A stretch of DNA of 64,000 nt. Origin: Candidatus Latescibacterota bacterium. Its GTDB lineage: Bacteria; Krumholzibacteriota; Krumholzibacteriia; WVZY01; JAKEHA01. This document shows positions 7,231 through 57,777 of this stretch, in pieces; within the stretch, counting starts at the first letter, position 1; every line of letters starts with the position of its first letter. The stretch spans positions 292,989 to 356,988 of the forward strand of contig CAVTNQ010000002.1 in assembly GCA_963736125.1 (NCBI GenBank), given 5' to 3'. The notes beneath the pieces were generated by a model that had not been told where the DNA came from, did no database searches, and saw nothing but the letters and a program-made list of their open reading frames with translations. A program made the translations under genes and the position numbers.

Positions 7231-7235
7231 TCCAA

Positions 7236-8504
7236 GTGATAGACCGCCGCCTCATTCGCGAAGATCCCGAGCGCGTTCGTACTGGGTTGTCCCGCCGTCG
7301 CGCGACGGTCGATGTCGAGCACCTCCTTTCGATTGACCGCGAGCACCTCGCCAACATGCAACTCGCGGAGAAGCTCAAACACGAGCGCAATGTCTCGTCG
7401 GAAGAAATCGGCAAGCGCAAGTCCAAGGGCGAAGACATCGCACCTTTGCACGCGGCCATGAAGGAGACGTCGACCAAGATCAAGGAGCTGGAAGGGCGCA
7501 ACAAAGAGATCGAAGAGACGCTCGACAAGCTGCTTCTCATGGTCCCGAATCTCCCGCACGCGAGTGTGCCCGACGGCGCCGACTCGGCCGCGAACGTGGT
7601 CGTGCGCACCGTCGGTGTGGAGAAGAAGCCCTTCGACGACGTGCTGCCGCATTGGGAGATCGGCGAGAAGCTCGGCATCTTGGACTTGGAAGCCGGCCGC
7701 ATGGTGAGCGGGCGCGGCTTCATCGTGTTTCGCGGCGACGGGGCGCTGTTGTGTCGCGCACTGATCAACCTCATGCTCGACATGCACGCTGAACAAGGGT
7801 ACGACGAAGTGCGGGTTCCGTACCTCGTGACGCGCGCGTCGATGACCGGCACGGGGCAACTTCCCAAGTTCGAAGAGGACATGTACCACTGCACCGCCGA
7901 CGACCTGTTCCTGATCCCGACTTCCGAAGTCCCGGTGACCAACATCCATCGCGAGTCAGTCCTTGAAAAGAGCCAGCTGCCCATCAAATACACCGCGTAC
8001 AGCCCGTGCTTCCGTCGCGAAGCGGGGAGCCACGGCGCCGACACGCGCGGCCTCCTGCGCGTGCACCAGTTCGACAAGGTCGAGATCGTGAAGTTCGTCC
8101 ACCCCGATTCGTCGTACGACGAATTGGAGACCTTGACCACCGACGCCACTGCGGTCTTGGAAGCACTCGAGCTACCGTATCGCGTGGTGGCATTGTGCGC
8201 GGGCGACTTGGGCTTCGCGAGTGCCAAGACTTACGACCTCGAGACGTTTGCGCCCGGTGTGGACAAGTGGCTCGAAGTTTCGTCGTGCAGCAACTTCGAA
8301 GACTTCCAGGCGCGGCGCGCCGAAATAAGATTGAAAAAGACCGAAGGGGAGAAGCACAAGTTCGTGCACACGCTGAACGGTTCCGGCTTGGCGCTGCCGC
8401 GCGTGGTGGCGTCGATCCTCGAAGTGCACCAAACCCCGACCGGCCGCGTTCGCATTCCCGCGCGACTGCGGCCGTACATGCGCGGCAAGGAGTTCTTGGG
8501 CTGA
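7236..8504 (+). CDS. serS: Seryl-tRNA synthetase
   Basis: MIDRRLIREDPERV N-terminus with a coiled-coil arm; class II aaRS core (YTAYSPCFRREAGSHG, FDKVE); 422 aa. Confidence 0.85.
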   Translation: MIDRRLIREDPERVRTGLSRRRATVDVEHLLSIDREHLANMQLAEKLKHERNVSSEEIGKRKSKGEDIAPLHAAMKETSTKIKELEGRNKEIEETLDKLLLMVPNLPHASVPDGADSAANVVVRTVGVEKKPFDDVLPHWEIGEKLGILDLEAGRMVSGRGFIVFRGDGALLCRALINLMLDMHAEQGYDEVRVPYLVTRASMTGTGQLPKFEEDMYHCTADDLFLIPTSEVPVTNIHRESVLEKSQLPIKYTAYSPCFRREAGSHGADTRGLLRVHQFDKVEIVKFVHPDSSYDELETLTTDATAVLEALELPYRVVALCAGDLGFASAKTYDLETFAPGVDKWLEVSSCSNFEDFQARRAEIRLKKTEGEKHKFVHTLNGSGLALPRVVASILEVHQTPTGRVRIPARLRPYMRGKEFLG

Positions 8505-8507
8505 CGA

Positions 8508-9762
8508 ATGGCGTCGGCGCCCGGCGGCAGCATTCGATTCTGGCTGAAGGGATACCTGTTCCTCGGCGTGGCCGTGCTCATCCTGGCCATGCTGATCTAC
8601 TCCAATCATCTCATCGAACGCATGCGCGAGAACTCCGAGGCGACCAGCCGCCTGTTCTCGCGCTACATGGAAAACGTCATCTTCGAGGTGACCGACGACG
8701 GCCGCCTGGCCAACCTGCGCACCGTCATTCGCGAGACCGACCTCCCCATCATCATCACCGTGCTCGACGGCGTACCCATTCTGTGGAACCACGTGCCGGT
8801 CGAAGAACGCACGGCGGAAGACTTCAGCCTGATCGAGTCGATCGACGCTCGACGTGGACATCCGCCCAACGAGAAGTTTCGCAAGCTGGTCGACCTGTAT
8901 CGTGAGTTCGACAAGAAGAACGCGCCCATTCCCATTCGCGTGGTCGGTGCCAGCGAACCCTCGGGTTGGGTGCACTACGGACCGTCGCCGCTGCAACGCG
9001 AGTTGCGCTACATGCCGTTCGTGCTGCTCGGCATATTCTTGATCTTCATGGCCGTCGCGATTCAAGGGCTTCGTTATCTCAAGTTGAGCGAGCAACGGTC
9101 CATCTGGGTCGGGCTCGCGAAAGAGACCGCGCATCAACTCGGCACACCACTCTCCGCGATGCTCGGTTGGGTGCAGGTCATCAAAGACAAAGCTGCCGAC
9201 AAGGGTTACGACGACATCCGCGGATCTATCGAAGAGATGGAAGTCGACCTCGGACGTTTGAACAAAGTCACCGATCGTTTCAGCAAAATTGGTTCGACGC
9301 CGGACTTGGTCGAAGTCGACTTGAGGCGCGTGCTCGAGAACACCGTCGCGTATTTCCAGAAACGACTCCCCAGCCTCAAATCCAAGTCGGCCATCTCGCT
9401 CGTGGTGGGCGACATCGCGCGCGTGCGCGGCAACGAAGAGCTGCTCGAGTGGGTGTTCGAGAACTTGATCAAGAACGCCATTGACGCGCTCGGCGAAGCC
9501 GGCGGCCAAATCGAGATTCGCGCCGCCAATGACGCTGGCAGCAAGTTCGTCGACGTCACCGTACACGACACCGGCCGCGGCATTCCCGGGCGCACTGCGC
9601 GACGACGTGTTCCGCCCCGGCTTCACCACCAAACGCCGCGGCTGGGGCCTGGGCCTCGCCCTCGCGCGCCGCATCGTCGAGGAATACCACGGCGGCTCCA
9701 TCAAACTCGTCGAATCACGCCCCGGCAAGACGACGTTCTTGGTGAGACTGCCGGCTGCCTAG
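8508..9762 (+). CDS. Sensor histidine kinase, PorY-like, with a +1 frameshift near 9585-9595 (C/G homopolymer)
   Basis: Two TM helices flank a periplasmic domain; HisKA H-box ETAHQLGTPLSAMLGW; HATPase N-box NLIKNAIDA and G1 HDTGRGIPG in frame 0; the G2 end of the ATPase (GFTTKRRGWGLGLALARRIVEEYHGG) continues in the next frame (ORF 9481..9762). Confidence 0.75.
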
Positions 9763-9856
9763 CGCGCAGCCCTCCCGCCTTGATGCCCGCGTCCGCGGGC
9801 CTTATACTCCCAGCACACCATGACTGCAGTCTCATTCCCGCATTCTTTCTAGTTCT

Positions 9857-38031: not shown

Positions 38032-38040
38032 ACGAGTACG

Positions 38041-39778
38041 GTGATGCGACGATATGCCGCGCTACTTCTCGCCCTGGCGTTGCTGCTCCCGAGCGTCGCG
38101 GGAGCATCGCGCATCGAGTGCCGCCTCGACGGTGTGAAAGACGAGGACGTCCTCAAGAACATCGAAGCCACGCTCTCGATTTTTCGCGACCGCGACCGCG
38201 ACGACCTGACCCCCGCACGTATTCAGCAACTGCACGAGCGCGCACCCATGGAGATTCGTCGCGCGGTGGAGCCGCTCGGCTACTACCACTGCGAGGTCGA
38301 GGGAGCGCTCACGCCCCGCGACGGAGATAAGTTCGACGCGCGCTACGTCATTTCGCTCGGCGAGCCGGTTCGCGTGGGCCGCGTCAACGTGTCGGTGTCC
38401 GGCGACGGGAGCAAGCGCGCACCGTTCCCAGATTTGGTGGCGAAGTTTCCTCTGCAGCCGGGCAGCGTGCTCGACCAGCGGCTGTACACGCGGCAAAAGA
38501 ATGCCTTCGCGGCGGCGGCGATCGACAGCGGCTACCTGGATGCGACCTTCACCACGAGTGCGATCCACCTGAATCGGGACGACAACGTCGCGGACATCGA
38601 TCTCGTGTTCGCGACCGGGCCGCTGTACCGGTTCGGCCCGGTGACGTTCGATTCGACCTCGGTGGACGAACGCGTCCTGCGGTCTTACCTCACGTTCAAG
38701 CGCGGGGATCCCTTTCGTTACCGCAAACTGCTGTCGTTCCAATCCGCGCTGGGGGGTGCCCCGTACTTCAGCCGCGTGGAAGCGGTTCCGCGCCGCGACG
38801 TGGTGGACGACCACGAAGTTCCCATCGAGGTGAAGCTCACGATGCGCCGGCCGCGTCGCTACGAGGTCGGCGTCGGGTATGGCACCGACACCGGGCCGCG
38901 CATTCTTCTCAATGTCGAGTTCCGCCGCTTGAACCGGGCCGGCCATCGCTACACCGGACGCTTGAATCTCTCCGAGATCGAGCTGTCGCTCAACGCGGAG
39001 TACGTGATGCCATCGCGCTATCCCGATGTGCACGCGTACAGCATCGGTGCGGTGGTCGCGCGTCTCGATCCCGTCTCCTACACCACGACACGGCTGGCGG
39101 TGGGACCGACGCGGTCGCAACCCCGCTTCGGCTGGCGCGAGTCGATCACGATGAGCTACGAGCACGAGGACTACACGGTGGGGCCGGACGAAGGCATCAC
39201 GGACTTGGTCATCGCGGGCCTCACCTACCGACTCAAGCGCGCCGACGACGACATCCTGCCCACGCACGGCTACCGGCTGGACGTCGGCGCGCGCGGCGCC
39301 AGCGATGAGTTGCTTTCGTCACAGAGCTTCCTGTCGCTCACGGGCTCCGCGAAAGGGGTACGCTCGCTGAGCGATCGCGTGCGGGTGTTGGCGCGCGTCG
39401 ACGGCGGGTGGACGTCGACGACGTCGGTGCGCGACTTGCCGCCGACGGTCCGCTTCTTCGCCGGAGGCGACAACAGTGTCCGCGGCTACGAATACGAGTC
39501 GCTGGGCCCGGTCGCGGACGACGGACGCGTGGTCGGCGGCGAATTGGTTGCTCGTCACCTCGGCCGAACTCGAAGTCAGGCTGGCGGGCAAGTTCGGGCT
39601 GGCCGCCTTCTACGACGCCGGCAACGCGTTCTCGTCGCCGGGCGAAGGCGTGATCGAGCGGGGCACGGGTTTGGGACTGCGCTGGCGCTCCCCGGTGGGA
39701 CCGATCCGTCTCGACACGGCGTTCGCCGTCGATCACGACGATTGGCGCATTCACTTCACGATGGGACCCGACCTGTGA
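38041..39778 (+). CDS. tamA: TamA (Omp85/BamA-family outer-membrane translocation-assembly protein), with a 1-nt insertion near 39538
   Basis: Signal peptide; POTRA-like repeats; Omp85 motif RFFAGGDNSVRGYEYESLGP; the barrel end (GLAAFYDAGNAF...GLGLRWRSPVGPIRLD...RIHFTMG) continues in the +1 frame (ORF 39476..39778). Confidence 0.7.
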
Positions 39779-42700
39779 CGCGCGCGCGACGCATTCTTCG
39801 CTGGGTCGGTTTCGGCGTGGGAATCCTGCTGGCACTGGTCGTACTCGTGTCGGCCTTCGTTCTCTTCAGCGAGCCGGGTGCGCGGCTGGCGCTGGGATTC
39901 GCGAACCGGAGCGATGTGCCGGTTCGCGCGCGCTCGATCGAGGGGACGTTGGCGGGGCGCTTCGAGTTGCACGGCGTGGAAGTGCGGGTCGGACGGCTCT
40001 CGGCTTCGATCGACACCGTGCGCGTCGCGTGGCGGCCGCTGGCACTGCGCAAGCACCGCGTCGACATCACGGACGCGACGATCGCGGGGGCGCGTGTCGT
40101 GGTCGGACCGGCGGCGCCGGACTCGGTGCGCCAGGAGAAGAGCGCATCCGCCGACTCGACGCGCGAGCGCTGGGTGGTGACCGCCGATCGCGCGCGGGTT
40201 CGCAATGCCACCCTCGACGCACCCGGCGATGTGCACCTCGTCGATGTCGATCTGGTCGGAAGCGGCGGCCCGGACGGCTATCGCGCCGAGATCACGGCGT
40301 CGGGAGCAGCGTGGCGCGTTCCCGAATTGCGAGCGTTTGTGCGCGCGGCCGGCAACACGCGCGCGGTTACCGTCGACTCGCTCGACGTTCGATTGCTGGA
40401 CGGAACGCTCGCCGGCAACGCGTTCGTGCGCTGGAGCCCGGGGTTGTCGTGGCGCGGCCGCCTGCGCGGCGATTCGCTTCAAGTCGGCGAGTTGAGCGAC
40501 ACGCCGCGTGACTGGCTGGGTGCGGTCGCGTTCCGCGCGCAAACGACGGGGACCTTGCGCGAGGATTCCACGCGCATCGGCATCGACCTCGCGTCGCTGG
40601 ACGGTGTGTTGCGCGGTCGCGCGCTATCCGCGGGCGGACGCATCGACGTCGACGGAACGCGCATCGCGTCGCCGGGTGCCTGGGTGCGCTGGGGTCGTGC
40701 CAGTGTGCGCTTCTCCGGCCGCATGGACGAGATCGCGGACGTCACCCTCGACGCCACAGTACCGTCCCTAGCCGAAATTCTGCCCCGCGCGCAAGGGTCG
40801 GCGCGGTTGCGCGGTCGCGTCACCGGCACTTCGTCGAAGTTCGACGTCGACGTCGAGACGAGCGGTCGAGGCGTGCGCGTGGAGCGCCGGAGCATCCCCG
40901 ATTTCGACGCCACGATCGACGCGACGCTCGTCGCGCGCGACTACGTCCCGGAGAGCGCCGACCTGCGCCGCGCCGAGATACGAGTCGGCCGCGGGAAACT
41001 GGAGGTGCGGGGCGGCGCGTCGTGGCACGACGGCATCGCCTGGAAGGTGGCGCTCGCGGCCGACAATTTCGAAACGTCGACGCTGACACCCGCGCGTTGG
41101 AACCTGTACGGACCGCTCTCGCTGCGCGCCACGACTTCGGGAGAGCGACGCAGGCACGTGCGTGGCACCGCGTCGATCGAGACGCTGTCGGGGTCGATTC
41201 GTGGCGCCGCGCTGAGCGGTGCGGGGAGTGTGGTGGTCGACGGCGGCGAAGCGGACTTCTCGGACGTGCACCTCACGTGGGGCGATGCGCACGCGATCGC
41301 CGACGGTCACGTCGGCGCCACCCTCGACCTCGAGTTCGACGTCGTGGCACCCGACTTGGCTCGGCTCGATGCGACGCTGCACGGTGCCTTGTCGATCCAG
41401 GGGAAGGCGCACGGTGCGCGCACCCGACCCGTCGTCACGGCGACCGTCCGCGCCGACAGTCTGCGCACGCGCGGATACGCGGTGGATCACCTGCGAGCGA
41501 GCATCGACGCCGACCTCGCATTCGCGACGCCGGCCGACGTCCGCGTGTCGGCGTTGGGCGCGTCGCGGGGCGAGACCCGCTTCGACAGTGTCAGTGTCAA
41601 TATCGCCGGACCGCGCGATCGACACCACGCGTCGGTCCTGCTGGCGGCGGGTGACCGACGCCTCACGCTGTCGGTGACGGGTGCCTACGCGGATTCGGCG
41701 TGGTCGGGCTGGATCGAAGACGTGCGGCTTCGTCACCCCGTGGCGGGCGCATGGCACTCGCTCGGTCGCGCGTCCGTCGCTGTGTCTCGCTCACACGTGC
41801 AGCTCGATTCGCTCACCCTCGCGTCGGGGAGCGCGCGTCTTTCCGCCGTCGCCGACTGGCGACGCGGTGGTGCCGCGCGCGTCGATCTCGCCGCCGGCCC
41901 GGGGAAGATCGTGCGCGAAGGGAACGCGATCGAGTACAGCGGCCGGCTCTCGGCCCGCGCCGACACGACGGGTATCTTCGCGCGTCTCGATATCGACCTC
42001 GGTCGCGATGGTGCCCTCGCCAAGGTCGACGGAGAGGCGTCGATGCCGCACTTCGTCATCGGGCGCGATTCGCTCGCGACCCAGCCGCTCGAGGGCAAGA
42101 TCGACCTCCACTGCGCCGACATCGGGCCCGTGCTGGCGGTGCTCGCACCCGACCTGCGCAAGTCGTCGGGTAGGCTCACCGCGCAAATATCGCCCAAGGG
42201 AACCGCGGGGAACTTCGCGCTCGTGGGTCGCGTGGCACTCGAGAAGGCGCGCTTCGACCTTGCGTCCGGGCTGCACCTGCGGGACACGGAACTCTTGATG
42301 GTCGCGGACGGGGACGGCCGCGTGTCGTTGAACGGCACCGCGACGTCGGGCGGGGGACGCGTGCGGGTCGAAGCCACGAGCGCGCGGTCGGCGAAAGGCT
42401 GGATCGAGGGAAGTGTTACCGCCAAGGGCGAGCGCTTCCAACTGATCGACCAGCCCGACGCGCAAGTGTTCGTGTCGCCCGACGTGGAGTTGCGGTTGGA
42501 GCCGCATCACGCGGCCGTGACCGGTACCGTGCGCGTGCCATTCGCGCGCATCGAGACGGCACAGGTGCCGGCGTCGGCCGCCGCGACCTCACCCGACGTC
42601 GTGTTCGTCGAAGACACACTGGCGACGAAGGAGGCCACGACGATGACCGCGAAGGTACGCGTGGAACTCGGCGACAGCGTGAGCTTCACAGGCTTCGGGC

Positions 42701-43365
42701 TGCGCGCGCGACTGGCAGGAAGCCTGGACGTCGACGACGAACGCGGTCGTCCGACGCGCGCAACCGGCGAGATTCAGATCGTGGACGGAAAATATCGCGC
42801 GTTCGGCAGCGAGCTCAAGATCGACCCGGGCCGCCTCGTTTTCGGCGGCGGAGCGATCGACAACCCCGGGCTCGACGTGCGCGCATACCGCGGTTTGAGC
42901 ACCCAACAGGTCACGGTGGGCTCGGGCGACATTGTCGGCGTCATCCTGCGCGGCACGCTGCGCCGGCCGGAACTCTCCGTCTTCTCCAATCCAGCCATGT
43001 CGGAGAGCGAGATCATGTCGTATCTCGTGCTGGGCCGGCCCATGTCATCTGGTGATCAATCGGCGCTGGCCAGTGCCGCGTTGCTCATCGGCATGCAGCA
43101 GGGAACGCAGATCGCGGGCGACATCGGCGGACGCTTCGCGCTCGACGAAGCGTATCTCGAGTCCGGGAGCGAGGCCAACGAGACCGCCTTCGTGGCGGGC
43201 AAGTACCTCTCGCCGACACTCTACGTCAGCTATGCGACCGGTCTGTTCGAGAAGACCAACACCTTCCGCGTGCGCTACTCGCTGGCGAAGCGATGGACCC
43301 TGCAAGCGGAAAGCGGAGATGCCAGCAGCACCGATATCCTGTACTGGTTCGAGCGCGGGAAGTAG
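39775..43365 (+). CDS. tamB: TamB (translocation and assembly module subunit, DUF490/AsmA-like)
   Basis: GTG overlapping the tamA stop (GTGA); N-terminal TM anchor; about 1200 aa of beta-rich repeats; C-terminal DUF490-like end (LGRPMSSGD..., YVSYATGLFEKTN, RVRYSL...WTLQAESGD). Confidence 0.7.
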   Translation: MTRARRILRWVGFGVGILLALVVLVSAFVLFSEPGARLALGFANRSDVPVRARSIEGTLAGRFELHGVEVRVGRLSASIDTVRVAWRPLALRKHRVDITDATIAGARVVVGPAAPDSVRQEKSASADSTRERWVVTADRARVRNATLDAPGDVHLVDVDLVGSGGPDGYRAEITASGAAWRVPELRAFVRAAGNTRAVTVDSLDVRLLDGTLAGNAFVRWSPGLSWRGRLRGDSLQVGELSDTPRDWLGAVAFRAQTTGTLREDSTRIGIDLASLDGVLRGRALSAGGRIDVDGTRIASPGAWVRWGRASVRFSGRMDEIADVTLDATVPSLAEILPRAQGSARLRGRVTGTSSKFDVDVETSGRGVRVERRSIPDFDATIDATLVARDYVPESADLRRAEIRVGRGKLEVRGGASWHDGIAWKVALAADNFETSTLTPARWNLYGPLSLRATTSGERRRHVRGTASIETLSGSIRGAALSGAGSVVVDGGEADFSDVHLTWGDAHAIADGHVGATLDLEFDVVAPDLARLDATLHGALSIQGKAHGARTRPVVTATVRADSLRTRGYAVDHLRASIDADLAFATPADVRVSALGASRGETRFDSVSVNIAGPRDRHHASVLLAAGDRRLTLSVTGAYADSAWSGWIEDVRLRHPVAGAWHSLGRASVAVSRSHVQLDSLTLASGSARLSAVADWRRGGAARVDLAAGPGKIVREGNAIEYSGRLSARADTTGIFARLDIDLGRDGALAKVDGEASMPHFVIGRDSLATQPLEGKIDLHCADIGPVLAVLAPDLRKSSGRLTAQISPKGTAGNFALVGRVALEKARFDLASGLHLRDTELLMVADGDGRVSLNGTATSGGGRVRVEATSARSAKGWIEGSVTAKGERFQLIDQPDAQVFVSPDVELRLEPHHAAVTGTVRVPFARIETAQVPASAAATSPDVVFVEDTLATKEATTMTAKVRVELGDSVSFTGFGLRARLAGSLDVDDERGRPTRATGEIQIVDGKYRAFGSELKIDPGRLVFGGGAIDNPGLDVRAYRGLSTQQVTVGSGDIVGVILRGTLRRPELSVFSNPAMSESEIMSYLVLGRPMSSGDQSALASAALLIGMQQGTQIAGDIGGRFALDEAYLESGSEANETAFVAGKYLSPTLYVSYATGLFEKTNTFRVRYSLAKRWTLQAESGDASSTDILYWFERGK

Positions 43366-44790: not shown

Positions 44791-47458
44791 ATGACGCTCA
44801 ACCCCGGCACCAAACTCGGTCCCTACGAAATCCTCGTCCCCCTGGGCGCGGGCGGCATGGGCGAAGTCTATCGCGCGCGCGACACGCGCCTGGGCCGCGA
44901 CGTGGCCATCAAGGTGCTGCCCCAGCATCTCTCGTCGAATCGCGGAAGTGCGCGCGCGCTTCGAGCGCGAAGCGAAGACGGTCTCCGGCCTCAATCACCC
45001 GCACATCTGCACGCTCTTCGACGTCGGCCGCGAAGGCGAGACGGACTTCTTGGTGATGGAATTGATCGACGGCGAGACGCTGGCGAAGCGCCTCACGAAG
45101 GGCCCGATGGCGGTGTCGGAGGTCGTGAAACTCGGCGTGCAGATCGCCGACGCGCTGGACGGCGCGCACCGCGCCGGCATCGTCCACCGCGACTTGAAAC
45201 CCGGCAACGTGATGCTGACCAAGTCGGGTGCGAAACTCATGGATTTCGGCCTCGCGCGCGCGACCGGCCTGGCCAATCCGTCGGGCAGCGGCGCGTCGAT
45301 GGAATCCCTCACGCAATCGCCCACGATCGCACAACCGCTGACGGCGGAAGGGACGATCGTCGGCACGTTCCAGTACATGTCGCCCGAACAACTCGAGGGC
45401 AGCGAAGCCGACGCGCGCAGCGACCTGTGGGCGCTGGGATGTGTTCTCTACGAAATGACGACGGGCAAACGCGCCTTCGAGGGCAAGAGCCAAGCGTCGT
45501 TGATCGGCGCCATCATGAATTCCCAGCCGGCGCCGATCTCGCAGTTCGCCCCCATGAGCCCGCCCGCCCTCGAACGCCTGGTCAAGCAATGTCTCATTCG
45601 CGACGCCGACGAACGCTGGCAGTCGGCCGGCGATGTGCGCCGCGAGCTGGAGTGGATTGCCGGCAGTTCGTCGCAGAGTGCGGCGCCGCCGATTGCGCAT
45701 CGCCGAAGATTCTCGCGCGGAGCGATCGGCCTTTTCGCCGGCATCCTGATCGCGGCCGTGGCGATCGCGCTCTCGTTCGGTCCGGGAAGGAAACACAGCG
45801 GCGCGGGGCCTCTCATGCGCTTCAGCCTGGAAGCGCCCCGCGGATCGATCCTGACGCAACCCGCCGAACTGGCGTTGTCGCCGGATGGGACCATGCTGGC
45901 GCTGGTCGCGGCCGACAGTGTTGGAAAAGCGTCGATCTACATTCGTCCTCTGGCGAGCGCGGAAGCCCGCGTACTACCGGGGACGGAGTTGGGTTCGCTC
46001 CCGTTCTGGTCGCCCGACAGCCGCACGGTCGCTTTCTTCTCCGGGGGCAAGCTGCGCAAGATTGCCGTCGGTGGTACCGAGCCGGTGGTTCTGTGCGATG
46101 CGCCCGACGCGCGCGGCGGTGACTGGTCCAAGAACGGCGTGATCGTATTCGCCCCCAACAATCAGGGCCCGATCGCGCGCGTGTCCGAAAACGGCGGAGA
46201 TCCGGAGCCGGTGACGACGATCAACGCAGCGCGCCACGAACGCGGCCACCGCTACCCGCAGTTTCTTCCCGATGGAAAACATTTTCTCTACGTGGCGGTC
46301 GGTGCCGACGAGACGGTGGTCACCTACCGCGCGTCGATCGAAGGCGGCGATGCCGAGGAAGTCTGCCAGGGTGGATCCGAGGCACGGTGGGCGGAACCGG
46401 GATATTTGTTGTTTCTAGACAGCGGAGTCAATTCTCCCCGCCGCCGTCTGCTCGCGCAGCGCGTCGATCCGGGCACCCTGCGCGCCACCGGAGATCGGGA
46501 ACTCGTGTTGGACCCGGTCAACGCGACCAACTTTGGCTATGCGAACGTGACCTCGGATGCCCGCAACACGCTCGTGGTGCAGCATTGGAGCGACGCCCAC
46601 CGGAGCCTGGAGTGGGTCGACCGGCGCGGCGTGAAGCTGGGCACCGTAGTCGACGACCTGGCGCTCGGCACGCTGGCACTGAGTCCCGACGGCGAACGAC
46701 TGGCGTATTCCGGCCTGGACCCGCAGGACCTGTTTGTCCTGGATCTCAAGACCGGTGTCTCCACGCGGCTGACCTTCGAGAACAAGAGCATTACGACCAT
46801 CGTGTGGTCGCCCGATGGCCACACCCTCGCGTTCTCACGTCTCTCGAGCGGATGGCAGATGTACATGAAAGCCGCGGACGGCACGGGACCCGATTCACTC
46901 CTGTTTCGCGGCCCCGCGATGTTCAACTTTGCCGACAATTGGTCGGAAGACGGACGCTGGATCGTCGCCGAGTGCGCGGACAGCAGCGGCAATCGCGATC
47001 TCTGGAAGATACCGATGCAGGGTGGCGGACGGCCGTCGGTGTATCAGCGAACGCCCGCGGCGGAACAGGGGGCGTCGTTTTCTCCAGACGGTAAGTGGAT
47101 CCTGTACCAGGTTCCCGAGGGCGACGAGTTCCCGCTCTATGTGCAATCATTCCCGACGCCAGGGTCGAAGTACCAGGTGGCTTTCAAGAATCCGCTGGGC
47201 GCGGGGTGGTCCAAAAAGGGGAATGCGATTTTGGTTGGTGGTGGCGATAACGAGGTGTTTTCCATCGATGTTTCCACTGCGGGCGGTTTCCGCCAGGGCG
47301 CCACACATCGTCTCTTCCGTATGGAAGCGGCCCAAATCTTTTCCGGCATCGCACCCGGCGAGCAGAAATTTCTGATGGCGCGGCTCAAAGACGTCTCGTC
47401 GCTTTCGCGCATCGAAGTCGTCCTCAACTGGCCGTTGCTCCTGAACCACTCGAAATAG
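44791..47458 (+). CDS. Membrane Hanks-type Ser/Thr protein kinase with TolB-like beta-propeller ectodomain (paralogue 1; 1-nt insertion near 44940)
   Basis: Kinase subdomains ([29 protein letters not shown]); a single TM helix; repeated LSPDG/FSPDG/WSPDG beta-propeller blades; the N-terminal 50 aa are in a different frame from the rest (ORFs 44791.. and 44948..). Confidence 0.7.
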
Positions 47459-47466
47459 ATCGAAAG

Positions 47467-50160
47467 ATGTCTCTCGTTCCCGGCACCAGACTCGGCCCCT
47501 ACGAAATCCTCTCGCCCCTCGGCGCGGGTGGCATGGGCGAAGTCTATCGTGCGCGCGACACGCGCCTGGGCCGCGACGTGGCGATCAAGGTGCTGCCGCA
47601 GCATCTCTCGTCGAACGCGGAAGTGCGCGCGCGCTTCGAGCGCGAAGCGAAGACGGTGTCGGGATTGAATCACCCGCACATCTGCACGCTCTTCGACGTC
47701 GGCCGCGAAGGGGAGACGGACTATCTGGTCATGGAACTCATCGACGGTGAAACGCTGGCAACGCGGCTCGCGCGCGGGGCCCTGCCGACCCCCGACGTGC
47801 TTCGCACCGGCACCGAGATCGCGGATGCGCTCGACCGCGCGCACCGCGCCGGTGTCGTCCACCGCGACTTGAAGCCGGGCAACGTCATGTTGACCAAGAG
47901 CGGTGCCAAGCTCATGGACTTCGGGCTCGCGCGCGCGACGGGGCTCGCGGGTTCGCCGGGCAGCGGGGCGTCGATCGCGGCGCTCACGCAATCGCCGACG
48001 GTTGCACACCCTCTCACCGCGGAAGGGACCATCGTCGGGACGTTTCAATACATGTCGCCCGAGCAGCTCGAAGGCGGCGAAGCGGACGCGCGCAGCGACC
48101 TATGGGCGATGGGCTGCGTCTTGTACGAGATGGCGACGGGCAAGCGCGCTTTCGAAGGAAAGAGCCAGGCGTCGTTGATCACGTCGATCATGGGGACGGA
48201 GCCCGCACCGGTTTCGCAGGTGGCGCCGACCGCACCACCCGCGCTCGAGCAACTCGTGCGCGCGTGCTTGGCGAAGGATCCCGCCGACCGCGTGCAGAGC
48301 GCCCACGATGTGAAGCTGCAGCTCTCGTGGATGGCGCAAGCGGGGTCGCAAGCGGGTGCACCGCGGCCCGCAGTCAAGCGGCGTCGAAGCCGCGACGCGC
48401 TGGCGTGGGCCGTCACCGCCGCGGCCGTTGTGGTTGCGATCGGCGCGTTCGTTTTGTCGAAGAAACCCACTGCCGGTTCACCGGCGGTGTATGCGTACTT
48501 GCAACCGCCGCACGGCGTGTTGTTTTCGTCGAGCACGGACCGGCCCTTGCCGCTGGCGATTTCGCGCGACGGTTCGACCATCGCGTTTTGCGCGCGCGAC
48601 GGAGAAGGCCCCGATCTCTTGTGGGTGCGCTCACTCGGCAACGACGACGCGCACCCCATCCCCGGGACCGAGGGAGCACAGGGACCGTTCTTCTCGCCGG
48701 ATGGGCGCTCGCTGGGATTTTTCGCCAACAACGAACTCAAGCGCGTCGACGTGGCCGGCGGTCCGGTGATCTCCCTCGCCAGCGGCATTGATCAACGCGG
48801 CGGGACCTGGAACCGCGACGGCGTCATTCTGTTCACTGGTAACTCGTACGGCCCGGTTTCGACGATCCCGGCGGACGGGGGTAGCGTGACCGCCGCGACG
48901 GCTCTCGACACGACGCGCGCCGAGACCACGCACCGATATCCTCACTTTCTTCCCGACGGACGACATTTTCTTTATTTGGCGCGCCGGGCCGGCGCGGGTG
49001 CGGGCGAAAACCCGACCATCTACGTGGCCGAACTTGGATCCAACACGCGCAAAGCATTGATGGAGGTGGCCTCCAATATTGCGTACGCGTCGGGTCACCT
49101 CATCTATATCCGCGGCGGAGTCTTGGTCGCGCAACGTTTCGATACCGGAAAGCTGGCCGTCGAAGGACCCGCCATCCCGTTGGTCGACGATGCGCGCATC
49201 GACACTCGATTCAGCCGGGGTGTGTTTGCGGTGTCGGAGAACGGCGTTCTCATCTGCATGACGGGGCGTGATCAGACGCGTACGCAGTTGCGCTGGCTGG
49301 ATCGCGCCGGGAAACCGTTGGGCGACGTCGGCGAGCCCGCGGACTACACGTATGGGGGCACACCCTGTATTTCCCCCGACGGAAGGAGCACCGTCATGCC
49401 GATTGCGAACGTCGACCGCGGTGTCTCCGATGTGTGGGTGGTCGATCTCGAATCGGGTCGGCGCCGGAAGCTCACCGTCGACACGCTCGACCATCCCGGC
49501 GCGCAGTGGCAGCCCGGTGGTCGGTCGGCGGTGGTGAGTACGAACACCACGTCGGGGAACGGTTCTCTCGAAGCGATGCAGTTCGATGGGAGACAGGAGA
49601 ACCTCGTCAAGTCGACCGCCGATTTCATGTGGCCCGAGTCGACCTTCGGGGACCGGTTGCTCTACTCGATCGAAACCCCGAAGAATGGGAGCGAGATCTA
49701 CCTCGCGTCGTTGTCGGGCGAAGCCAAGCCGGAAAAGTTTTTCGACACGCCGGCGCGAGTGTCGAGCGCGCAGTTTTCGCCCGACGGACGCTTCGTCGCG
49801 TACGTGTCCGACGAAACCGGACGCCCCGAGGTGTTCGTCGCGGCGTTTCCGCAGCCCGGGGGGCGTTGGCAGGCGTCGCAATCGGGGGGCATCGAGCCGC
49901 GCTGGAATCGAAACGGTCGCGAGCTGTTCTTCGTCGACCCCGAGAATCATGTCGTGTCGCTCGATGTGGAATTCGGTGCGGGTGGGTTCCGGGCCGGAGC
50001 GGCGCGCCCGCTTTTCCAATGGCACGGTTCGGCGGGGCTATGGCGATACGACGTCGCGCCGGACGGAAGTCGATTCCTCGTGGCGGCGGCTCTCGAAGAG
50101 GATCTGGCCCGGCCGGTGACGATTCTCACCGACTGGACGCGAAAGGTCGAAGGGCGCTGA
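47467..50160 (+). CDS. Membrane Ser/Thr protein kinase with TolB-like beta-propeller ectodomain (paralogue 2)
   Basis: Same architecture as paralogue 1; intact 897 aa; the kinase domain is about 90% identical to paralogues 1 and 3. Confidence 0.8.
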   Translation: MSLVPGTRLGPYEILSPLGAGGMGEVYRARDTRLGRDVAIKVLPQHLSSNAEVRARFEREAKTVSGLNHPHICTLFDVGREGETDYLVMELIDGETLATRLARGALPTPDVLRTGTEIADALDRAHRAGVVHRDLKPGNVMLTKSGAKLMDFGLARATGLAGSPGSGASIAALTQSPTVAHPLTAEGTIVGTFQYMSPEQLEGGEADARSDLWAMGCVLYEMATGKRAFEGKSQASLITSIMGTEPAPVSQVAPTAPPALEQLVRACLAKDPADRVQSAHDVKLQLSWMAQAGSQAGAPRPAVKRRRSRDALAWAVTAAAVVVAIGAFVLSKKPTAGSPAVYAYLQPPHGVLFSSSTDRPLPLAISRDGSTIAFCARDGEGPDLLWVRSLGNDDAHPIPGTEGAQGPFFSPDGRSLGFFANNELKRVDVAGGPVISLASGIDQRGGTWNRDGVILFTGNSYGPVSTIPADGGSVTAATALDTTRAETTHRYPHFLPDGRHFLYLARRAGAGAGENPTIYVAELGSNTRKALMEVASNIAYASGHLIYIRGGVLVAQRFDTGKLAVEGPAIPLVDDARIDTRFSRGVFAVSENGVLICMTGRDQTRTQLRWLDRAGKPLGDVGEPADYTYGGTPCISPDGRSTVMPIANVDRGVSDVWVVDLESGRRRKLTVDTLDHPGAQWQPGGRSAVVSTNTTSGNGSLEAMQFDGRQENLVKSTADFMWPESTFGDRLLYSIETPKNGSEIYLASLSGEAKPEKFFDTPARVSSAQFSPDGRFVAYVSDETGRPEVFVAAFPQPGGRWQASQSGGIEPRWNRNGRELFFVDPENHVVSLDVEFGAGGFRAGAARPLFQWHGSAGLWRYDVAPDGSRFLVAAALEEDLARPVTILTDWTRKVEGR

Positions 50161-50169
50161 CCGCGCGCG

Positions 50170-52869
50170 ATGACGTTGAACATCGGCACCAAACTCGGTC
50201 CCTACGAAATCCTCTCGCCATTGGGCGCGGGTGGGATGGGCGAAGTCTATCGCGCGCGCGACACGCGCCTGGGTCGCGACGTGGCGATCAAGGTGCTCCC
50301 GCAGCACCTGTCGTCGAATGCGGAAGTACGCGCGCGCTTCGAGCGCGAAGCGAAGACGGTGTCGGGATTGAATCACCCGCACATCTGCACGCTCTTCGAC
50401 GTCGGTCGCGAAGGCGACACCGACTTCTTGGTGATGGAGTTGATCGAAGGCGAAACGCTGGCGACGCGTCTCTCGCGCGGCGCGCTCCCGACCGCCGACG
50501 TGCTAAGACTCGGCACCGAAATCGCCGACGCACTCGACCGCGCGCACCGCGCCGGCATCGTCCACCGCGACTTGAAACCGGGCAACGTCATGCTGACCAA
50601 GTCGGGTGCGAAGTTGATGGACTTCGGACTCGCGCGCGCCACCGGGCTCGCCAGCTCGTCGGGCAGCGGCGCGTCGCTCCTCACGCAATCGCCCACCGTC
50701 GCGCATCCGCTCACCGCGGAAGGGACGATCGTCGGCACGTTCCAATACATGTCGCCCGAGCAGCTCGAGGGCAAAGAAGCCGACGTGCGCAGCGACTTGT
50801 GGGCGCTCGGGTGTGTGCTCTACGAAATGGCGACGGGCAAGCGCGCGTTCGACGGTGCCAGCCAGGCGTCTCTGATTTCGTCGATCATGTCGTCGAACCC
50901 GGCGCCGATTTCGCAGGTATCGTCGATGGCGCCGCCGGCGCTCGATCGCCTGGTGCAAGCGTGCTTGGTAAAGGATCCCGCCGACCGCATCCAGAGCGCG
51001 CACGACGTGAAGCTGCAATTGGGTTGGATCTCCGACGGCGGTTCGCAAGCGGGAGTCCCGAAAGTTGTCGCGAAGAAGCGCCGCGGTCGCGAACGCCTGG
51101 GCTGGTCGATCGCGGTCGGGCTCGCACTCTTGAGCGGCGCGTTGGGTCGTCAGCTCACGATGAAGTCCAGGGGACACGACCTCGTCACGCGCACGACCAT
51201 CGCGGCGCCGTCGGGGACGCACCTCGAGATTTCGGGCGACGACGCGGGTCCGCCCGCCATCTCACCCGACGGGACGATGTTGGTGTTCTCCGCCGTGGGC
51301 GCGGGCGCGGGCAAGCGTCTCTGGCTCCGGCGTCTCGACGAAATGACCGCGCGACCGTTGCAGGGCACCGACGAAGCGAGCTATCCGTTCTGGTCGCCGG
51401 ACAGCAAGTCGATCGGCTTCTTCAGTCCGACCAAACTCAAGCGACTCGATCTCGCGCAAGGTTCCGTCATCGCGCTGTCGGATTCGGTGGACGCGGCACG
51501 CGGAGGCACGTGGTCGTCGACCGGCGTCATTCTCTTTACGCCCAAGTTCGGCGCCGGTCTTTACCAGGTGCCGGCTTCCGGCGGTTCGCTGCGTGCGGTG
51601 ACAACACTCGACACCACGCTCGAAACGACGCACCGCTTTCCGCAGTTCTTGCCCGACGGACGCCACTTCATCTACTTGTCGGCCAACCACGAAGACCCCG
51701 ACGGCAACTCGTCGGCCATCTACTACGCCTCCCTCGACGGCGGCGACCGGCGTCGCTTGATCACGTCGAAGAGCAACGCCGTCTACGCGCAGGGTTTTCT
51801 CCTGTTCGTGCGCGACAGCACCTTGATGGCGCAGGAATTCGACGCGTCCAAGGGACAGTTGAAAGGCGCGCCGCGCGCGACGCGCGAAGTCGTCCAGCTC
51901 GATCGCTCGACGTGGAACGCAACCATTACAGCGGCGGAGAACGGTGTGTTGGTCTACGGCCTCGGCGGATGGGCGGGCAACAACCGCATCGTGATGGTCG
52001 ATCGCTCGGGGGTCCGGGTGCGCGACTTGGTTGCGTCCGGCAATTTCCTCAACATCGATCTGGCACCGGATGAACACCGGTTGGTGTACGAATGGCAGCA
52101 AACACCGCTGGCCGACGACTGGATCCTCGATCTCACGACGGGAACGCGGTCGCGCATCACCACCAATCCCGACGACGAGTCGTATCCGATCTGGCTCTCC
52201 GACGGAAAGCGGATCGCGTACGGCGGACGGCGTTCGAGCCGCTACCGCATCTTTTTGAAGCGTGCGGACGGTGCTGGTGACGAAACTCAATTCCTCGAGG
52301 ACCCGAACGTCGACGTGTGGCCGGTCGACGCGTCGGCGGACGGAAGATGGCTGGTGTTCGGTAAGGGCCAGGCGTCGGGAACGGCGCACGGCTCGTTATG
52401 GATGGCGTCGCTCACGGGTGGTTCGCCGCCGCGACAATTGCTCGCGGCCGCCGACGACTTCCAAGGCGCGCAGTTCTCGCGCGACGGAAAGTGGCTTGCG
52501 TTTTCCGCCAACGTGTCGGGTCGAACGGAAGTCTACGTGTCGCCGGTTCCGTCCGGTGACGAAGGACTCCAAGCCCGCTGGCAGGTGTCGGGAAACGGCG
52601 GCGACCGCCCCCGCTGGCGCGCGGATAGTCGCGAGCTCTTCTACGTGCGGGCCGACGGCATGATCATGGCCGTCTCGGTGGACGGAACCGGGGCGGAGTT
52701 TCGCGTGGTCGGCGAAAAAGCGCTGTTTCAAGTATTCCAGCGCATCCTGTTGCAGACCATCTGTGTGACCGGCGACGGCGAGCGCTTCGTCGTCAATACG
52801 CTCGGCGGCGACGAAGACGAACCGCTGGCGGTCGTCACCAACTGGCTCCAGACGCTCCCGCAGCAGTAG
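50170..52869 (+). CDS. Membrane Ser/Thr protein kinase with TolB-like beta-propeller ectodomain (paralogue 3)
   Basis: Same architecture; intact 899 aa. Confidence 0.8.
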   Translation: MTLNIGTKLGPYEILSPLGAGGMGEVYRARDTRLGRDVAIKVLPQHLSSNAEVRARFEREAKTVSGLNHPHICTLFDVGREGDTDFLVMELIEGETLATRLSRGALPTADVLRLGTEIADALDRAHRAGIVHRDLKPGNVMLTKSGAKLMDFGLARATGLASSSGSGASLLTQSPTVAHPLTAEGTIVGTFQYMSPEQLEGKEADVRSDLWALGCVLYEMATGKRAFDGASQASLISSIMSSNPAPISQVSSMAPPALDRLVQACLVKDPADRIQSAHDVKLQLGWISDGGSQAGVPKVVAKKRRGRERLGWSIAVGLALLSGALGRQLTMKSRGHDLVTRTTIAAPSGTHLEISGDDAGPPAISPDGTMLVFSAVGAGAGKRLWLRRLDEMTARPLQGTDEASYPFWSPDSKSIGFFSPTKLKRLDLAQGSVIALSDSVDAARGGTWSSTGVILFTPKFGAGLYQVPASGGSLRAVTTLDTTLETTHRFPQFLPDGRHFIYLSANHEDPDGNSSAIYYASLDGGDRRRLITSKSNAVYAQGFLLFVRDSTLMAQEFDASKGQLKGAPRATREVVQLDRSTWNATITAAENGVLVYGLGGWAGNNRIVMVDRSGVRVRDLVASGNFLNIDLAPDEHRLVYEWQQTPLADDWILDLTTGTRSRITTNPDDESYPIWLSDGKRIAYGGRRSSRYRIFLKRADGAGDETQFLEDPNVDVWPVDASADGRWLVFGKGQASGTAHGSLWMASLTGGSPPRQLLAAADDFQGAQFSRDGKWLAFSANVSGRTEVYVSPVPSGDEGLQARWQVSGNGGDRPRWRADSRELFYVRADGMIMAVSVDGTGAEFRVVGEKALFQVFQRILLQTICVTGDGERFVVNTLGGDEDEPLAVVTNWLQTLPQQ

Positions 52870-52895
52870 CACGCATCCTCTAGGGCGCAGCACCG

Positions 52896-52917
52896 CGTTT
52901 GCGCTACAATCCGGCGA
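52896..52917 (+). promoter_or_regulatory. Conserved kinase-gene leader motif CGTTTG(C/G)GCTACAATCC(G/C)GCGA immediately upstream of the ATG (possible -10 TACAAT driving a leaderless mRNA)
   Basis: The 25-nt block including the ATG is 23/25 identical to 56645..56669; TACAAT sits 7 nt before the ATG with no SD. Confidence 0.3.
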
Positions 52918-55890
52918 ATGCTTTCCCCCGGCACCCAACTCGGTCCCTACGAAATCGCGACACCGCTCGGAGCGGGCGGCATGGGCGAAGTGTATCGCGC
53001 GCGCGACACGCGCCTGGGCCGCGAAGTTGCCATCAAGGTTCTCCCGCGTCATCTCGCATCGAATCCGGAAATGCGCGCGCGCTTCGAGCGCGAAGCGTCC
53101 GCCATCGCGACACTCAAGCACCCGAGCATCGTCACCATTCATTCCATCGAGGAAGCGGCCGGCGTCCATTTCATGGTGATGGAGTTGGTGGAAGGCCGAA
53201 CCCTCGCCGACATCATCGCGGACGGCGAAATGTCACTCGAGCGATTCCTCGCGATCGCGGAGCCGCTCGCCGACGGCGTGGCGGCCGCGCACGCGAAGGG
53301 CATCATCCATCGCGACCTCAAACCCGCCAATATTCTCGTCGACGCCAACGGGCGCGTGAAGATTCTCGATTTCGGATTGGCGAAGCTCGCCGAGAAGACG
53401 TTTTCCGATTCGGACCAGACGGTCGGTTCGGAATCGCACACGCGCGACGGCCAGATTCTCGGCACGGTGGCGTACATGTCGCCCGAGCAAGCGGAGGGAC
53501 TCCCGGTCGACCTGCGATCGGACGTCTTTTCGCTGGGCATCGTCTTCTACGAGATGGCGACGGGGAAGAATCCTTTCCAGCGCGCGACCGTGGTCTCGAC
53601 GCTGTCGGCCATCTTGAAAGACACGCCCCCGTCGATCGTGGACCTGCGACCGTTGCCGGCGGCGCTCAACGACATCGTCGCGCACTGCCTCGAGAAGTCG
53701 CCCGCGCAGCGCTATCCGTCGGCGGCCGCGCTGCGCGACGACCTTCGCGTCTTGCAGACGAACACGACGGCGGAGAAGTTGGTGGCGGCGAAACGCGTGT
53801 CGCTGCTCGCAACACTGCGCAAGCCCCGTGTCGCCGTACCCGTGGCGGCGTTGGTGATCGCGCTGGGCGGGGTCGCCGCGTGGGTTCACCATCGCTCGAC
53901 GCGAACGCGCTGGGCGCGACAAGTGGCGCTGCCGGAAATCGAGCGCTTGCTCGACGCGACACCGTGGACCGGCGGTGCGGGGATGTGGAAAGCCTACGAA
54001 CTCGGTAACGAGGCCGCGCGCTTCCTCCCCGACGATCCCGTCCTGCTCGCTCTCGAAGAACGGTACTCCGAGCCGATGACCCTTCACACCGAGCCATCCG
54101 ATGCGCGCGTCTATGCCCGGCCGTTTGCGGCGGCGGATACCGCGTGGACGCTCGTCGGCAAGACTCCCATCGACACGCTGCGCTTCGTGCGCGGCGTTTT
54201 CCGAATCAAGATCGAGAAGAACGGCTACCTGACGGCCAACGACCTGTTCTGGAACGGCTTCTACGACGAGAATGATCGTGTCTACGAATTGAAACGTTCC
54301 GACCAAGTCCCGCGCGGGATGGTGTTCGTTTCGGGTCAAGCGCCGCTCGTGCGATCGGACGGAGTCACCGAGGGCGTGCACATGCCGGGCATCGAGCACT
54401 TGGCACCGCAGAAACTGGGTGATTTCTTCGTCGATCGTTTCGAAGTGACCAACCGCGTCTACAAGCAATTCGTCGACGCGGGCGGTTATGGCGATCCGTC
54501 GTTCTGGAAGGAGCCGTTCATCGAGAACGGACGCACCGTGAAATGGAAGGACGCCATGGCGCGCTTCGTCGACTCGACGCAACGCCCCGGGCCGGCCGGT
54601 TGGGAAGTGGGGGATTATCCGGACGGAAACGACCGCTTTCCCGTCACGGGCATCAGCTGGTATGAAGCGGCGGCCTTCGCCGAGTTCGCCGGTAAGCAAC
54701 TTCCCACCATCTATCACTGGGACCGCGTGGCGCTCACGTGGGCGAGCGGCGACATCGTGCCGCTGAGTAACCTGACCACCAATGGGCTCGTGAACGTGGG
54801 CAGCACGGAGGGAATGAATCGCTACGGTGCCTTCGACCTCGCCGGTAATGCACGCGAGTGGTGCGCCAACGCCACCAGCCGGGGCGATCGTTTCATCTTG
54901 GGCGGCGGTTGGAACGATCCCGCGTATGCATTCAACGACGCCTACGCGCAGTCGCCGTGGGATCGTTCGGAGACCAACGGCTTTCGGTGCATTCGATATA
55001 TCGGGGCCGACGTCGACCGCGTGGCCTTGTCGGACACCGTCGAGGTTCCATTTCGCGATTTTCTAAACGAACCGGCCGTGTCGGACGAGACGTTCGCGCT
55101 GTACACCAACCAATTCCGCTACGACAAGACTCCGCTCGACGCGGACATCGAAGGGACCTCGGAAACCGACGACTACGTGCGCCAGAAGATTGCGTTCGAC
55201 GCGGCGTACGGCGGCGAGCGCATGACGGCGTATCTGTTTCTGCCGAAGAAGAGCACGCCTCCCTATCAAACGGTCGTATACTTTCCGGGATCGGGGTCGA
55301 TCCACACGCGATCGAGCGCGGACCTCTCTCCGGGCACGAGCGATTTCTTCCTGAAGAGCGGACGCGCGTTCTTGTGGCCGGTGTTGAAGAGTACCTACGA
55401 ACGCGGCGACGACCAGACCTCCGACTACGCGGACGAAAGCAATCGCTACAAGGACCACGTGGTGATGTGGACGAAGGACATCATGCGGTCGATCGACTAC
55501 TTGGAGACGCGCGCGGACATCGACGCGAGCCGGCTCGCCTTCCTGGGCCAAAGTTGGGGAGCCGAGTTGGCGCCGGTCGTGCTCGCGGTCGAGCCGCGAC
55601 TCAAGGCGGGCATCCTGGTGGTGGCCGGACTGGGCTTTCAGCGCTCGCAGCCGGAGGCCGATCCGATGAGCTACATTCGCCACGTGCTCGCACCCGTCGT
55701 CATGCTCAATGGGAAGTACGACTTCTTCTTTCCGTACGAGACGTCGCAGGTTCCCTTCTACGAGCTTCTTGGAACTCCAAGAGATCACAAGAAGCTTGTC
55801 GTGTACGAATTCGGCCACGCCATTCCCGCGACGGATCGCGCGCGCGAATCACTGGCGTGGCTGGATCGCTATCTAGGCCCGGTTCGATGA
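52918..55890 (+). CDS. Membrane Ser/Thr protein kinase fused to an FGE-sulfatase (SUMF1-like) domain and a C-terminal alpha/beta-hydrolase domain
   Basis: Kinase motifs ([18 protein letters not shown]); a TM helix; FGE-sulfatase-like region ([36 protein letters not shown]); then an alpha/beta-hydrolase with the nucleophile elbow GQSWGA. Confidence 0.7.
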
Positions 55891-56644: not shown

Positions 56645-56720
56645 CGTTTGGGCTACAATCCCGCGAATGCGAATCATCGGAAAAAACATCTCGCATTACG
56701 AGATCGTCGAGAGGAGGTGA
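56645..56720 (+). other. Relic 5' end of a Ser/Thr kinase paralogue: the conserved leader motif plus a 17-codon ORF (MRIIGKNISHYEIVERR) that ends in the selD ribosome-binding site
   Basis: Leader motif 23/25 identical to the one upstream of kinase 4; the peptide keeps the G5 and YEI(V/A) register of the kinase N-termini, then stops; its final codons (AGG AGG TGA) form the SD for selD. Confidence 0.45.
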
Positions 56721-56727
56721 CAATCCC

Positions 56728-57777
56728 ATGGCCGAGAAAGATCGCTTGTTTCGCCTGACCGAATTCGCGTCATGCGCCGGTTGAGCCTCTAAATTCAGCG
56801 CGGCGGGGCTGCGCGAAATACTCGGCAAGTTGCCGGTTCCGGCCGATCCGAATGTATTGGTGGGTCACGCCGGGAGCGACGACGCCGGGGTCTATCGACT
56901 CTCGGACGACTCCGCGATGGTAGTCACGGTGGATTTCTTTACACCCATCGTCGACGACGCGTACGACTACGGCCGTGTTGCGGCGACCAACTCGCTCTCC
57001 GACGTGTACGCGATGGGCGGGCGCCCGATCGTGGCACTCAACATTGCGGGCTTTCCGGAGAACACGATTCCACCCGACGTGCTGGGCGAGATCATCCGCG
57101 GAGGCGCCGACGTCGCGCGCGCGGCGGGGGTTTCGATCCTGGGCGGTCACACCGTCAACGACGCCGAAGTGAAATACGGGCTCGCAGTGATCGGTATGAT
57201 CGACCCGCGTCGCATCGTGCGCAACGCCGGTGCGCGCGCGGGAGACGTCTTGATATTGACGAAGGCGATCGGAACCGGCGTGCTCGCGACGGCCTTGAAG
57301 CAGCGCACGCTTTCTCCCGAGCGAACGCGCGCGTTGGTCGCGTCGATGACGCAGCTCAATCGTGACGCCGCGGAGGCGATGCTTCGCCACGACCCGCACG
57401 CGTGCACGGACATCACCGGCTACGGGCTCGTCGGTCACGCCAACGAAATGGCGGAGGGAGGCAATGTCACCATCGTGCTGCGCGCGGCCGGCGTTCCGGT
57501 GCTCGAAGGCGCCCGCGAAGCAGTAGAGCAAGGCCACCTCACCGGCGGCGGCAAGGCGACGCGTCGTTTCATGCAGGACAAGGCGCGCGTCTCATCGGCA
57601 ATCGACGAGACGACGACGTCTCTGCTCTTCGACCCGCAGACGTCGGGCGGCTTGTTGATCGCGGTCGCACCCGAGCGCGCGCCCGCGTTGCTGGCCGAAC
57701 TCAAGCCGATGCATCCGCACGCCGCGATTGTCGGCGAGTGCATCGCGCGTCGCGACGTCTCCATCATCGTCGAATGA
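56728..57777 (+). CDS. selD: Selenide, water dikinase (selenophosphate synthetase), a selenoprotein with an in-frame UGA (Sec) at 56782-56784
   Basis: ATG at 56728 preceded by GGAGG; the N-terminus MAEKDRLFRLTEFASCAG-U-ASKFS aligns with the SelD motif RLTQYSHGAGCGCK with TGA at the Cys/Sec position; the rest (NVLVG..DDAGVY, TVDFFTPIVDD, RVAATNSLSDVYAMGG) is canonical SelD; the ORF track only reports the part after the TGA (56830..57777). Confidence 0.8.
56794..56817 (+). promoter_or_regulatory. Candidate bacterial SECIS hairpin downstream of the selD UGA
   Basis: UUC-A-GCGCGG / CGGGG loop / CUGCGC-GAA: a 9-bp stem with one bulged A and an apical loop about 22 nt after the UGA. Confidence 0.35.

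Follow-up and report, generated by a model that had tools for sequence, protein, structure and literature searches.

The selD reading frame

In the window, by which we mean the whole 64 kb stretch of DNA that was analysed, a reading frame of the plus strand begins with the ATG codon at 56728-56730, runs through MAEKDRLFRLTEFASCAG to an in-frame TGA at 56782-56784, continues with ASKFSAAGLREILGKL and reaches its next stop only at 57775-57777. The features of this frame and of its leader are given below.

56711..56717, plus strand: Shine-Dalgarno-like GAGGAGG, 10 nt upstream of the ATG, read from the sequence
56728..57777, plus strand: full-length selD coding sequence, 349 codons including the candidate Sec19, plus the terminal TGA at 57775-57777
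56728..56781, plus strand: N-terminal 18 codons (MAEKDRLFRLTEFASCAG), absent from gene calls; the match to the SelD profile starts here from profile position 1
56782..56784, plus strand: in-frame UGA, candidate Sec residue 19, corresponding to Cys17 of E. coli SelD by alignment
56791..56793, plus strand: AAA codon of Lys22, corresponding to the catalytic Lys20 of E. coli SelD (alignment to 3U0O)
56794..56817, plus strand: candidate bacterial SECIS hairpin, UUC-A-GCGCGGC-GGG-GCUGCGC-GAA, from the minimum free energy (MFE) fold of the region

An earlier note on this DNA, made from the letters alone, had proposed that selD is encoded here as a selenoprotein and had read the ATG at 56728, the UGA and the open reading frame (ORF) annotated from 56830 as one frame. 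The sequence confirms that they are in frame at these positions. The note had also stated that the ORF track misses the N-terminus, and indeed the six-frame ORF listing contains selD only as an ORF of 315 amino acids which starts from the TTG at 56830. The Lys22 codon lies three codons past the UGA and ahead of the first possible restart codon.

The Shine-Dalgarno region GGAGGTGACAATCCCATG shows no difference between the window, a near-identical strain (L001) and the relative L002. In three other relatives (L085, L086 and L090) in-frame stops are found shortly upstream of the selD ATG. Just upstream of the Shine-Dalgarno sequence the selD leader contains a perfect 7 bp palindrome, ATCTCGTAATGCGAGAT (56688-56704), which is flanked by an A/T run and has a terminator-like score on the minus strand. 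The palindrome is present in L001 and not in L002.

On the minus strand an ORF of 255 amino acids (56770-57537) lies antisense to selD, and a further ORF of 69 amino acids also spans the UGA region. The sequence is explained by the SelD frame, so both look spurious, of a type which is common in GC-rich genes.

Assignment to the SelD family

Profile comparisons were made with the 349-residue product in which Cys was put in for the UGA. This product scores 384.6 bits against TIGR00476, the selD equivalog (cutoff 125), and covers positions 1-310 of the 311 positions of the profile. The match begins at residue 9, which corresponds to profile position 1 and lies upstream of the UGA. NF002098 is matched with 352.7 bits (cutoff 299). 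The Pfam domains AIRS (PF00586) and AIRS_C (PF02769), which make up the two-domain PurM-like architecture, were found on the truncated public entry P0001, which is identical to the window protein, and on the gene of L001. Judged by these matches, 56728-57777 encodes SelD, the selenide, water dikinase (selenophosphate synthetase).

The best match among solved structures, as found by phmmer, is E. coli SelD 3U0O (E = 4e-71). Residues 6-343 align with 243 bits, residue 19 (the UGA) falls on Cys17 and Lys22 on Lys20, and this Lys is conserved together with the rest of the N-terminal loop. The two proteins differ within the loop itself, where E. coli has Cys17 and Cys19 (G-C-G-C-K) whereas the window protein would have Sec19 and Ser21 (G-U-A-S-K) and carries an extra Cys at -3. 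In the comparison with Aquifex aeolicus SelD (2YYE/2ZOD; E = 8e-60 to 2YYE) the UGA falls on the Cys of SSGCAAK, and both proteins have G-[U]-A-[A/S]-K as local motif. The Cys of the crystallised Aquifex protein is an engineered replacement of the natural Sec13. The differences from Sec-type SelD of the Aquifex kind are confined to lineage-level details, and in the comparison with Sec-type SelD the Cys three residues before the Sec (C-A-G-U) belongs to them.

Two predictions that had been made from the letters can be judged here. The equation of the UGA with Cys17 of E. coli SelD holds residue for residue in the alignment to 3U0O and agrees with the Cys found in the nearest full-length homologues. 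The extended N-terminus, for which an alignment with Sec-containing SelD proteins had been suggested, belongs to SelD, as the profile is matched from its first position.

The Cys three residues before the Sec ([A/S/T]-C-A-G-U or C-x-x-U; 56773-56784 in the window) occurs in 100 of 145 Sec-type and in 3 of 17 Cys-type loci, a sample which is not phylogenetically independent. It is shared by every Sec-type member of the clade described below, and its position is taken by R or S in the Cys-type relatives.

Conservation of the UGA in related genes

The search of the protein collection returned SelD matches with 59-100% identity among the 120 listed, most of which are called as proteins of 286-319 amino acids and cover 82-91% of the query; one of them, P0102 with 72% identity, is labelled Candidatus Krumholzibacteria, a group to which the organism of the window may thus have ties. 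Such lengths are the signature of gene callers that halt at the UGA. The loss of the N-terminus to a standard gene caller, as foreseen in the earlier note, is thus found in the public entries for this gene and for most of its close relatives. The few relatives called at full length (P0017, P0021, P0022, P0024, P0040 and P0045; 66-73% identity) read RAGCAAKFS or SAGCAAKFS and have Cys at the position of the UGA.

For the comparison at the DNA level a clade set of 12 non-identical Sec-type members with 61-100% identity was used, which consists of the window and L002, L083-L087, L089, L090, L163, L164 and L166. The near-identical strain L001 stands outside these 12. A scan of the genome collection with a SelD alignment listed further relatives at 44-52% identity, which served as outgroup. 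All 12 members of the clade set have an ATG, 18 codons, a TGA and then an open frame, with a total of 349 codons (347 in L166). In the 17 codons upstream of the UGA the substitutions at codon positions 1, 2 and 3 are 0.17, 0.10 and 0.47, and in the rest of selD they are 0.21, 0.13 and 0.46. The patterns are alike on both sides of the UGA, so the upstream segment is translated in the selD frame. The UGA and its intact coding flanks are kept throughout the Sec-type members of the clade, as a reading of the UGA as Sec would demand.

Beyond the clade, the SelD loci collected from genomes and metagenomes have TGA at this position in 142 of 158 cases and TGC or TGT in the remaining 16, and they come from many phyla. 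That many bacteria have Sec here, as stated in the earlier note, agrees well with this count. A Lys at +3 from the UGA or Cys codon is present in each of the 162 SelD loci examined.

The hairpin downstream of the UGA

A bulged hairpin had been pointed out at 56794-56817 as a candidate SECIS element; it is present there and is the MFE structure. Its lower stem has 3 bp (56794-56796 with 56815-56817) and is followed by a bulged A at 56797, an upper stem of 7 bp (56798-56804 with 56808-56814) and the apical loop GGG (56805-56807).

We coded the criteria for bacterial SECIS elements (bSECIS) from the legend of Fig. 2A of PMC13188914 and applied them to the loci. The consensus asks for an apical loop of 3-9 nt with a G in the first two loop positions, an upper stem of 4-16 bp, a spacing of 16-37 nt from UGA to loop, and an MFE of -7.5 kcal/mol or below (PMC13188914). 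The window hairpin has a loop of 3 nt that starts with G, an upper stem of 7 bp, a spacing of 20 nt and a free energy of -12.1 kcal/mol, so that on all four points the candidate stands within the model.

In this genome of 65% GC, 8.9% of 2,500 random in-frame coding positions of the window also pass, and 4.4% of random coding positions do so at equal or better energy (-12 kcal/mol). The criteria are necessary here, but they are not specific. The hairpin has z = -1.25 relative to dinucleotide shuffles and z = -1.67 (p = 0.06) relative to sequences that encode its peptide with synonymous codons. On its own the hairpin is mildly unusual at most, and the weight beyond chance comes from the position of the TGA and from the comparative data.

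Over the 12 sequences of the clade, standard pairing is found in 99.1% of the base-pair cells; five pairs never vary, and in three one partner changes without loss of pairing. Covariation consists of a single double change, in which L166 has A-U for G-C and one of the two substitutions is a synonymous Leu change (CUG to UUG); the observed score was reached by 40 of 500 shuffles. At codons with a conserved amino acid, synonymous variation is 0.22 within the hairpin versus 0.44 elsewhere in selD (P ~0.008), and 0.16 versus 0.50 if the four- and six-fold degenerate codons are taken by themselves. Within the clade the recoding test has low power and gave z ~0 for most relatives, since most of the stem is already dictated by the encoded peptide F-S-A-A-G-L-R-E.

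Over the whole family the bSECIS criteria are passed by 94 of 128 distinct Sec-type SelD genes versus none of 17 Cys-type genes. The folding relative to synonymous recodings has a mean z of -1.46 for the Sec-type and of +0.05 for the Cys-type (Mann-Whitney p = 1.4e-5). Of the two Cys-type relatives of the clade for which DNA is available, L088 is without the hairpin and L167 keeps the upper stem only. Remnant SECIS-like structures after Sec-to-Cys conversions have been described (PMC1794560).

The hairpin resembles the SECIS element of E. coli fdhF in that it lies within the coding sequence directly downstream of the UGA and has a small G-G/G-U loop about 20 nt past it. It differs in its stem sequence, which is unrelated, and in the unpaired A that separates the lower from the upper stem in the window. 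With Rfam no family was found at gathering thresholds in the whole window, and a permissive search of 56700-56900 gave chance-level matches to unrelated families only (E >= 0.05, well under gathering scores).

Proximal and distal hairpins in SelD genes

Among the 94 Sec-type SelD loci which pass the criteria, 65 have their best hairpin at 33 nt from the UGA, with the loop GUU, GUG, GUC or GUA. This distal hairpin is formed by the codons for (L)AQVLR. Compared with this commoner arrangement, the candidate SECIS of the window is placed at 19-20 nt and has a GGG loop. A hairpin at 19-20 nt is found in the clade of the window and in an Acidobacteria-type group, and some sequences have both hairpins. 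Five clade members (L083, L002, L085, L164 and L087) can form a distal CGCGAG-NUN-CUYGCG that reaches into the proximal hairpin at its 3' arm, and in several relatives the overlapping hairpin at 33 nt is the preferred fold.

Over the loci L003-L162 the hairpin centres, at offsets from +16 to +50, fall into three registers. A count of pairs in one fixed register over all Sec-type SelD was dropped for this reason. A wider covariation alignment, anchored on the peptide motif U-A-[S/A]-K-[L/F]-S, mixes the hairpin registers and was likewise not counted.

Interpretation of the UGA

With a probability of about 0.88, we consider selD (56728-57777) to be a Sec-type SelD gene in which Sec19 is inserted at the UGA at 56782 via the hairpin 56794-56817. 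Translation would start at the ATG at 56728, and at UGA 56782 the ribosome would meet SelB·GTP·Sec-tRNA(Sec), which, bound to the hairpin 56794-56817, would deliver Sec in place of termination. The full enzyme of 349 residues would thereby be made, with the catalytic Sec19 in the N-terminal glycine-rich loop, where the motif of the window protein is C-A-G-U-A-S-K. From the established bacterial Sec pathway one would expect binding of SelB to this hairpin, actual insertion of Sec, and the presence of selA, selB and selC elsewhere in the genome.

A first departure from this reading leaves the Sec in place and changes the signal: the functional SECIS could be an element other than the proximal hairpin, for instance one related to the distal GUN hairpin. 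The 65 loci with their best hairpin at 33 nt speak for it, as do the five clade members in which the distal hairpin can form. In the window itself, however, 3 of the 6 pairs of the distal helix are broken so that it is unformable, and the clade-wide pairing is 73.6% for the distal versus 99.1% for the proximal helix, which makes the proximal hairpin the best SECIS candidate. The other downstream hairpin of the window (-6.3 kcal/mol, AGU loop, spacing of 43 nt) falls outside the bSECIS criteria and is not conserved. We therefore regard a different SECIS as unlikely and infer that the proximal hairpin 56794-56817 serves the window selD.

Much less probable still are the readings in which no Sec is inserted. 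If the UGA were a true stop, selD would be a pseudogene or a split gene, or its real start would be the TTG at 56830 or the ATG at 56917. The ORF listing and the public gene calls do start downstream of the UGA, and the window showed no Sec machinery. A downstream start, however, would drop the equivalents of both Cys17 (Sec) and Lys20, which lie ahead of any restart codon, and the 17 upstream codons with their coding-type substitutions, the properly placed Shine-Dalgarno sequence and ATG, and the recurrence of the TGA in an intact frame in the 12 clade members and in SelD loci of many phyla make this account very hard to maintain. Equally improbable is a read-through of the UGA by other means, be it a reassigned code (Trp or Gly), near-cognate or Cys insertion, or a TGC misread as TGA; nothing turned up that speaks directly for any of these. 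TGA is the ordinary stop of 16 of the 33 Pfam-supported genes of the window, selD included, which excludes a reassignment of the code, and the homologues have Cys at this position and not Trp or Gly. The same TGA is found in independent assemblies (L001, L002, L083-L087, L089, L090, L163, L164 and L166), which excludes a sequencing error, and a hairpin of bSECIS consensus follows it.

Taken as a Sec-type enzyme, the window SelD is an ordinary one with the common G-U-A-S-K motif, which is known biology and nothing new. SelD is ranked in reviews as the second most widespread family of bacterial or prokaryotic selenoproteins (PMC1794560, PMC9312934, PMC13188914). The main value of the result lies in the correction of the annotation, as the public entries lack the catalytic Sec and Lys. 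A pipeline fed with the truncated entries would draw a wrong picture of the enzyme and overlook that the organism uses selenocysteine. The gene indicates that the organism probably is such a user and predicts selA, selB and selC, and possibly other selenoprotein genes, elsewhere in the genome.

Two minor points of possible interest are the proximal versus distal placement of the SECIS and the more frequent occurrence of a Cys at -3 (C-x-x-U) among Sec-type than among Cys-type SelD. One may speculate that in this lineage the SECIS of SelD moved from the distal (33 nt, GUN) to the proximal position (19-20 nt, GGG), or, as a related option, that the conserved Cys of C-x-x-U protects Sec-type SelD in particular through a selenenylsulfide, although we consider this rather improbable. 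If the move did take place, the relatives in which the two hairpins overlap and exclude each other would show in nature how a SECIS changes its place in a single orthologous gene.

Selenocysteine machinery and genomic surroundings

Over the 64 kb window ARAGORN reported not a single tRNA and hence no tRNA-Sec, in line with what had been read from the letters. Pfam scans of about 40 ORFs of the window gave no SelA, SelB or SelU domains. Neither selB nor tRNA-Sec was found near selD in any locus of the clade, and selA was found neither in the window nor in the clade loci. More distant lineages include 10 loci with tRNA-Sec, and 15 with selB, no further than 10 kb from selD. To our knowledge a Sec-type SelD cannot be made without selA, selB and tRNA-Sec. 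As the Sec-type SelD is under purifying selection throughout the clade, established knowledge of the pathway lets us infer that selA, selB and selC are located elsewhere in the genome.

Among the distant loci, a metagenome-assembled genome (MAG) of Vicinamibacterales (L028) has selB, tRNA-Sec and selD clustered at 7585-9816. In a Gemmatimonadaceae MAG (L053, 11029-11127) and an Eisenbacteria MAG (L077, 11039-11136) tRNA-Sec lies directly downstream of selD. The Eisenbacteria SelD with the adjoining tRNA-Sec is of the Cys-type.

A scan of the window for other in-frame TGA codons between coding-like stretches returned gene boundaries only, such as the stop of serS at 8502. With the thresholds used the scan also missed the UGA of selD, and is thus insensitive to selenoprotein genes in which the UGA comes after only a short stretch of codons. 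The gene serS itself (7146-8504) encodes seryl-tRNA synthetase, a housekeeping enzyme which also charges tRNA-Sec with serine, and shows no sign of a dedicated role in Sec synthesis.

The order of the genes around selD is conserved throughout the clade. Upstream of selD four tandem Ser/Thr kinase genes (44795-55890) are followed by a divergent ORF of 233 amino acids, and downstream a gene for a small HXXEE-like membrane protein is followed by genes for M23 and M14 peptidases, which lie on the other strand. The kinases have about 890-1000 amino acids and carry C-terminal PD40/Tricorn beta-propeller or FGE-sulfatase-type domains, an arrangement which is conserved in the clade relatives. In L166, the most divergent Sec-type member of the clade, the kinase array is replaced by a TusA-family gene (7231-7464) located 2.5 kb upstream of selD, whose product is a small protein resembling sulfur or selenium carriers.

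Further upstream in the window, 38032-43365 forms a single stop-free frame of 1777 codons with a TamA-like N-terminal part (POTRA, Omp85) and a C-terminal TamB part. L002 has a separate TamB call of 1236 amino acids, so that the frame probably comprises two neighbouring genes rather than a fusion.
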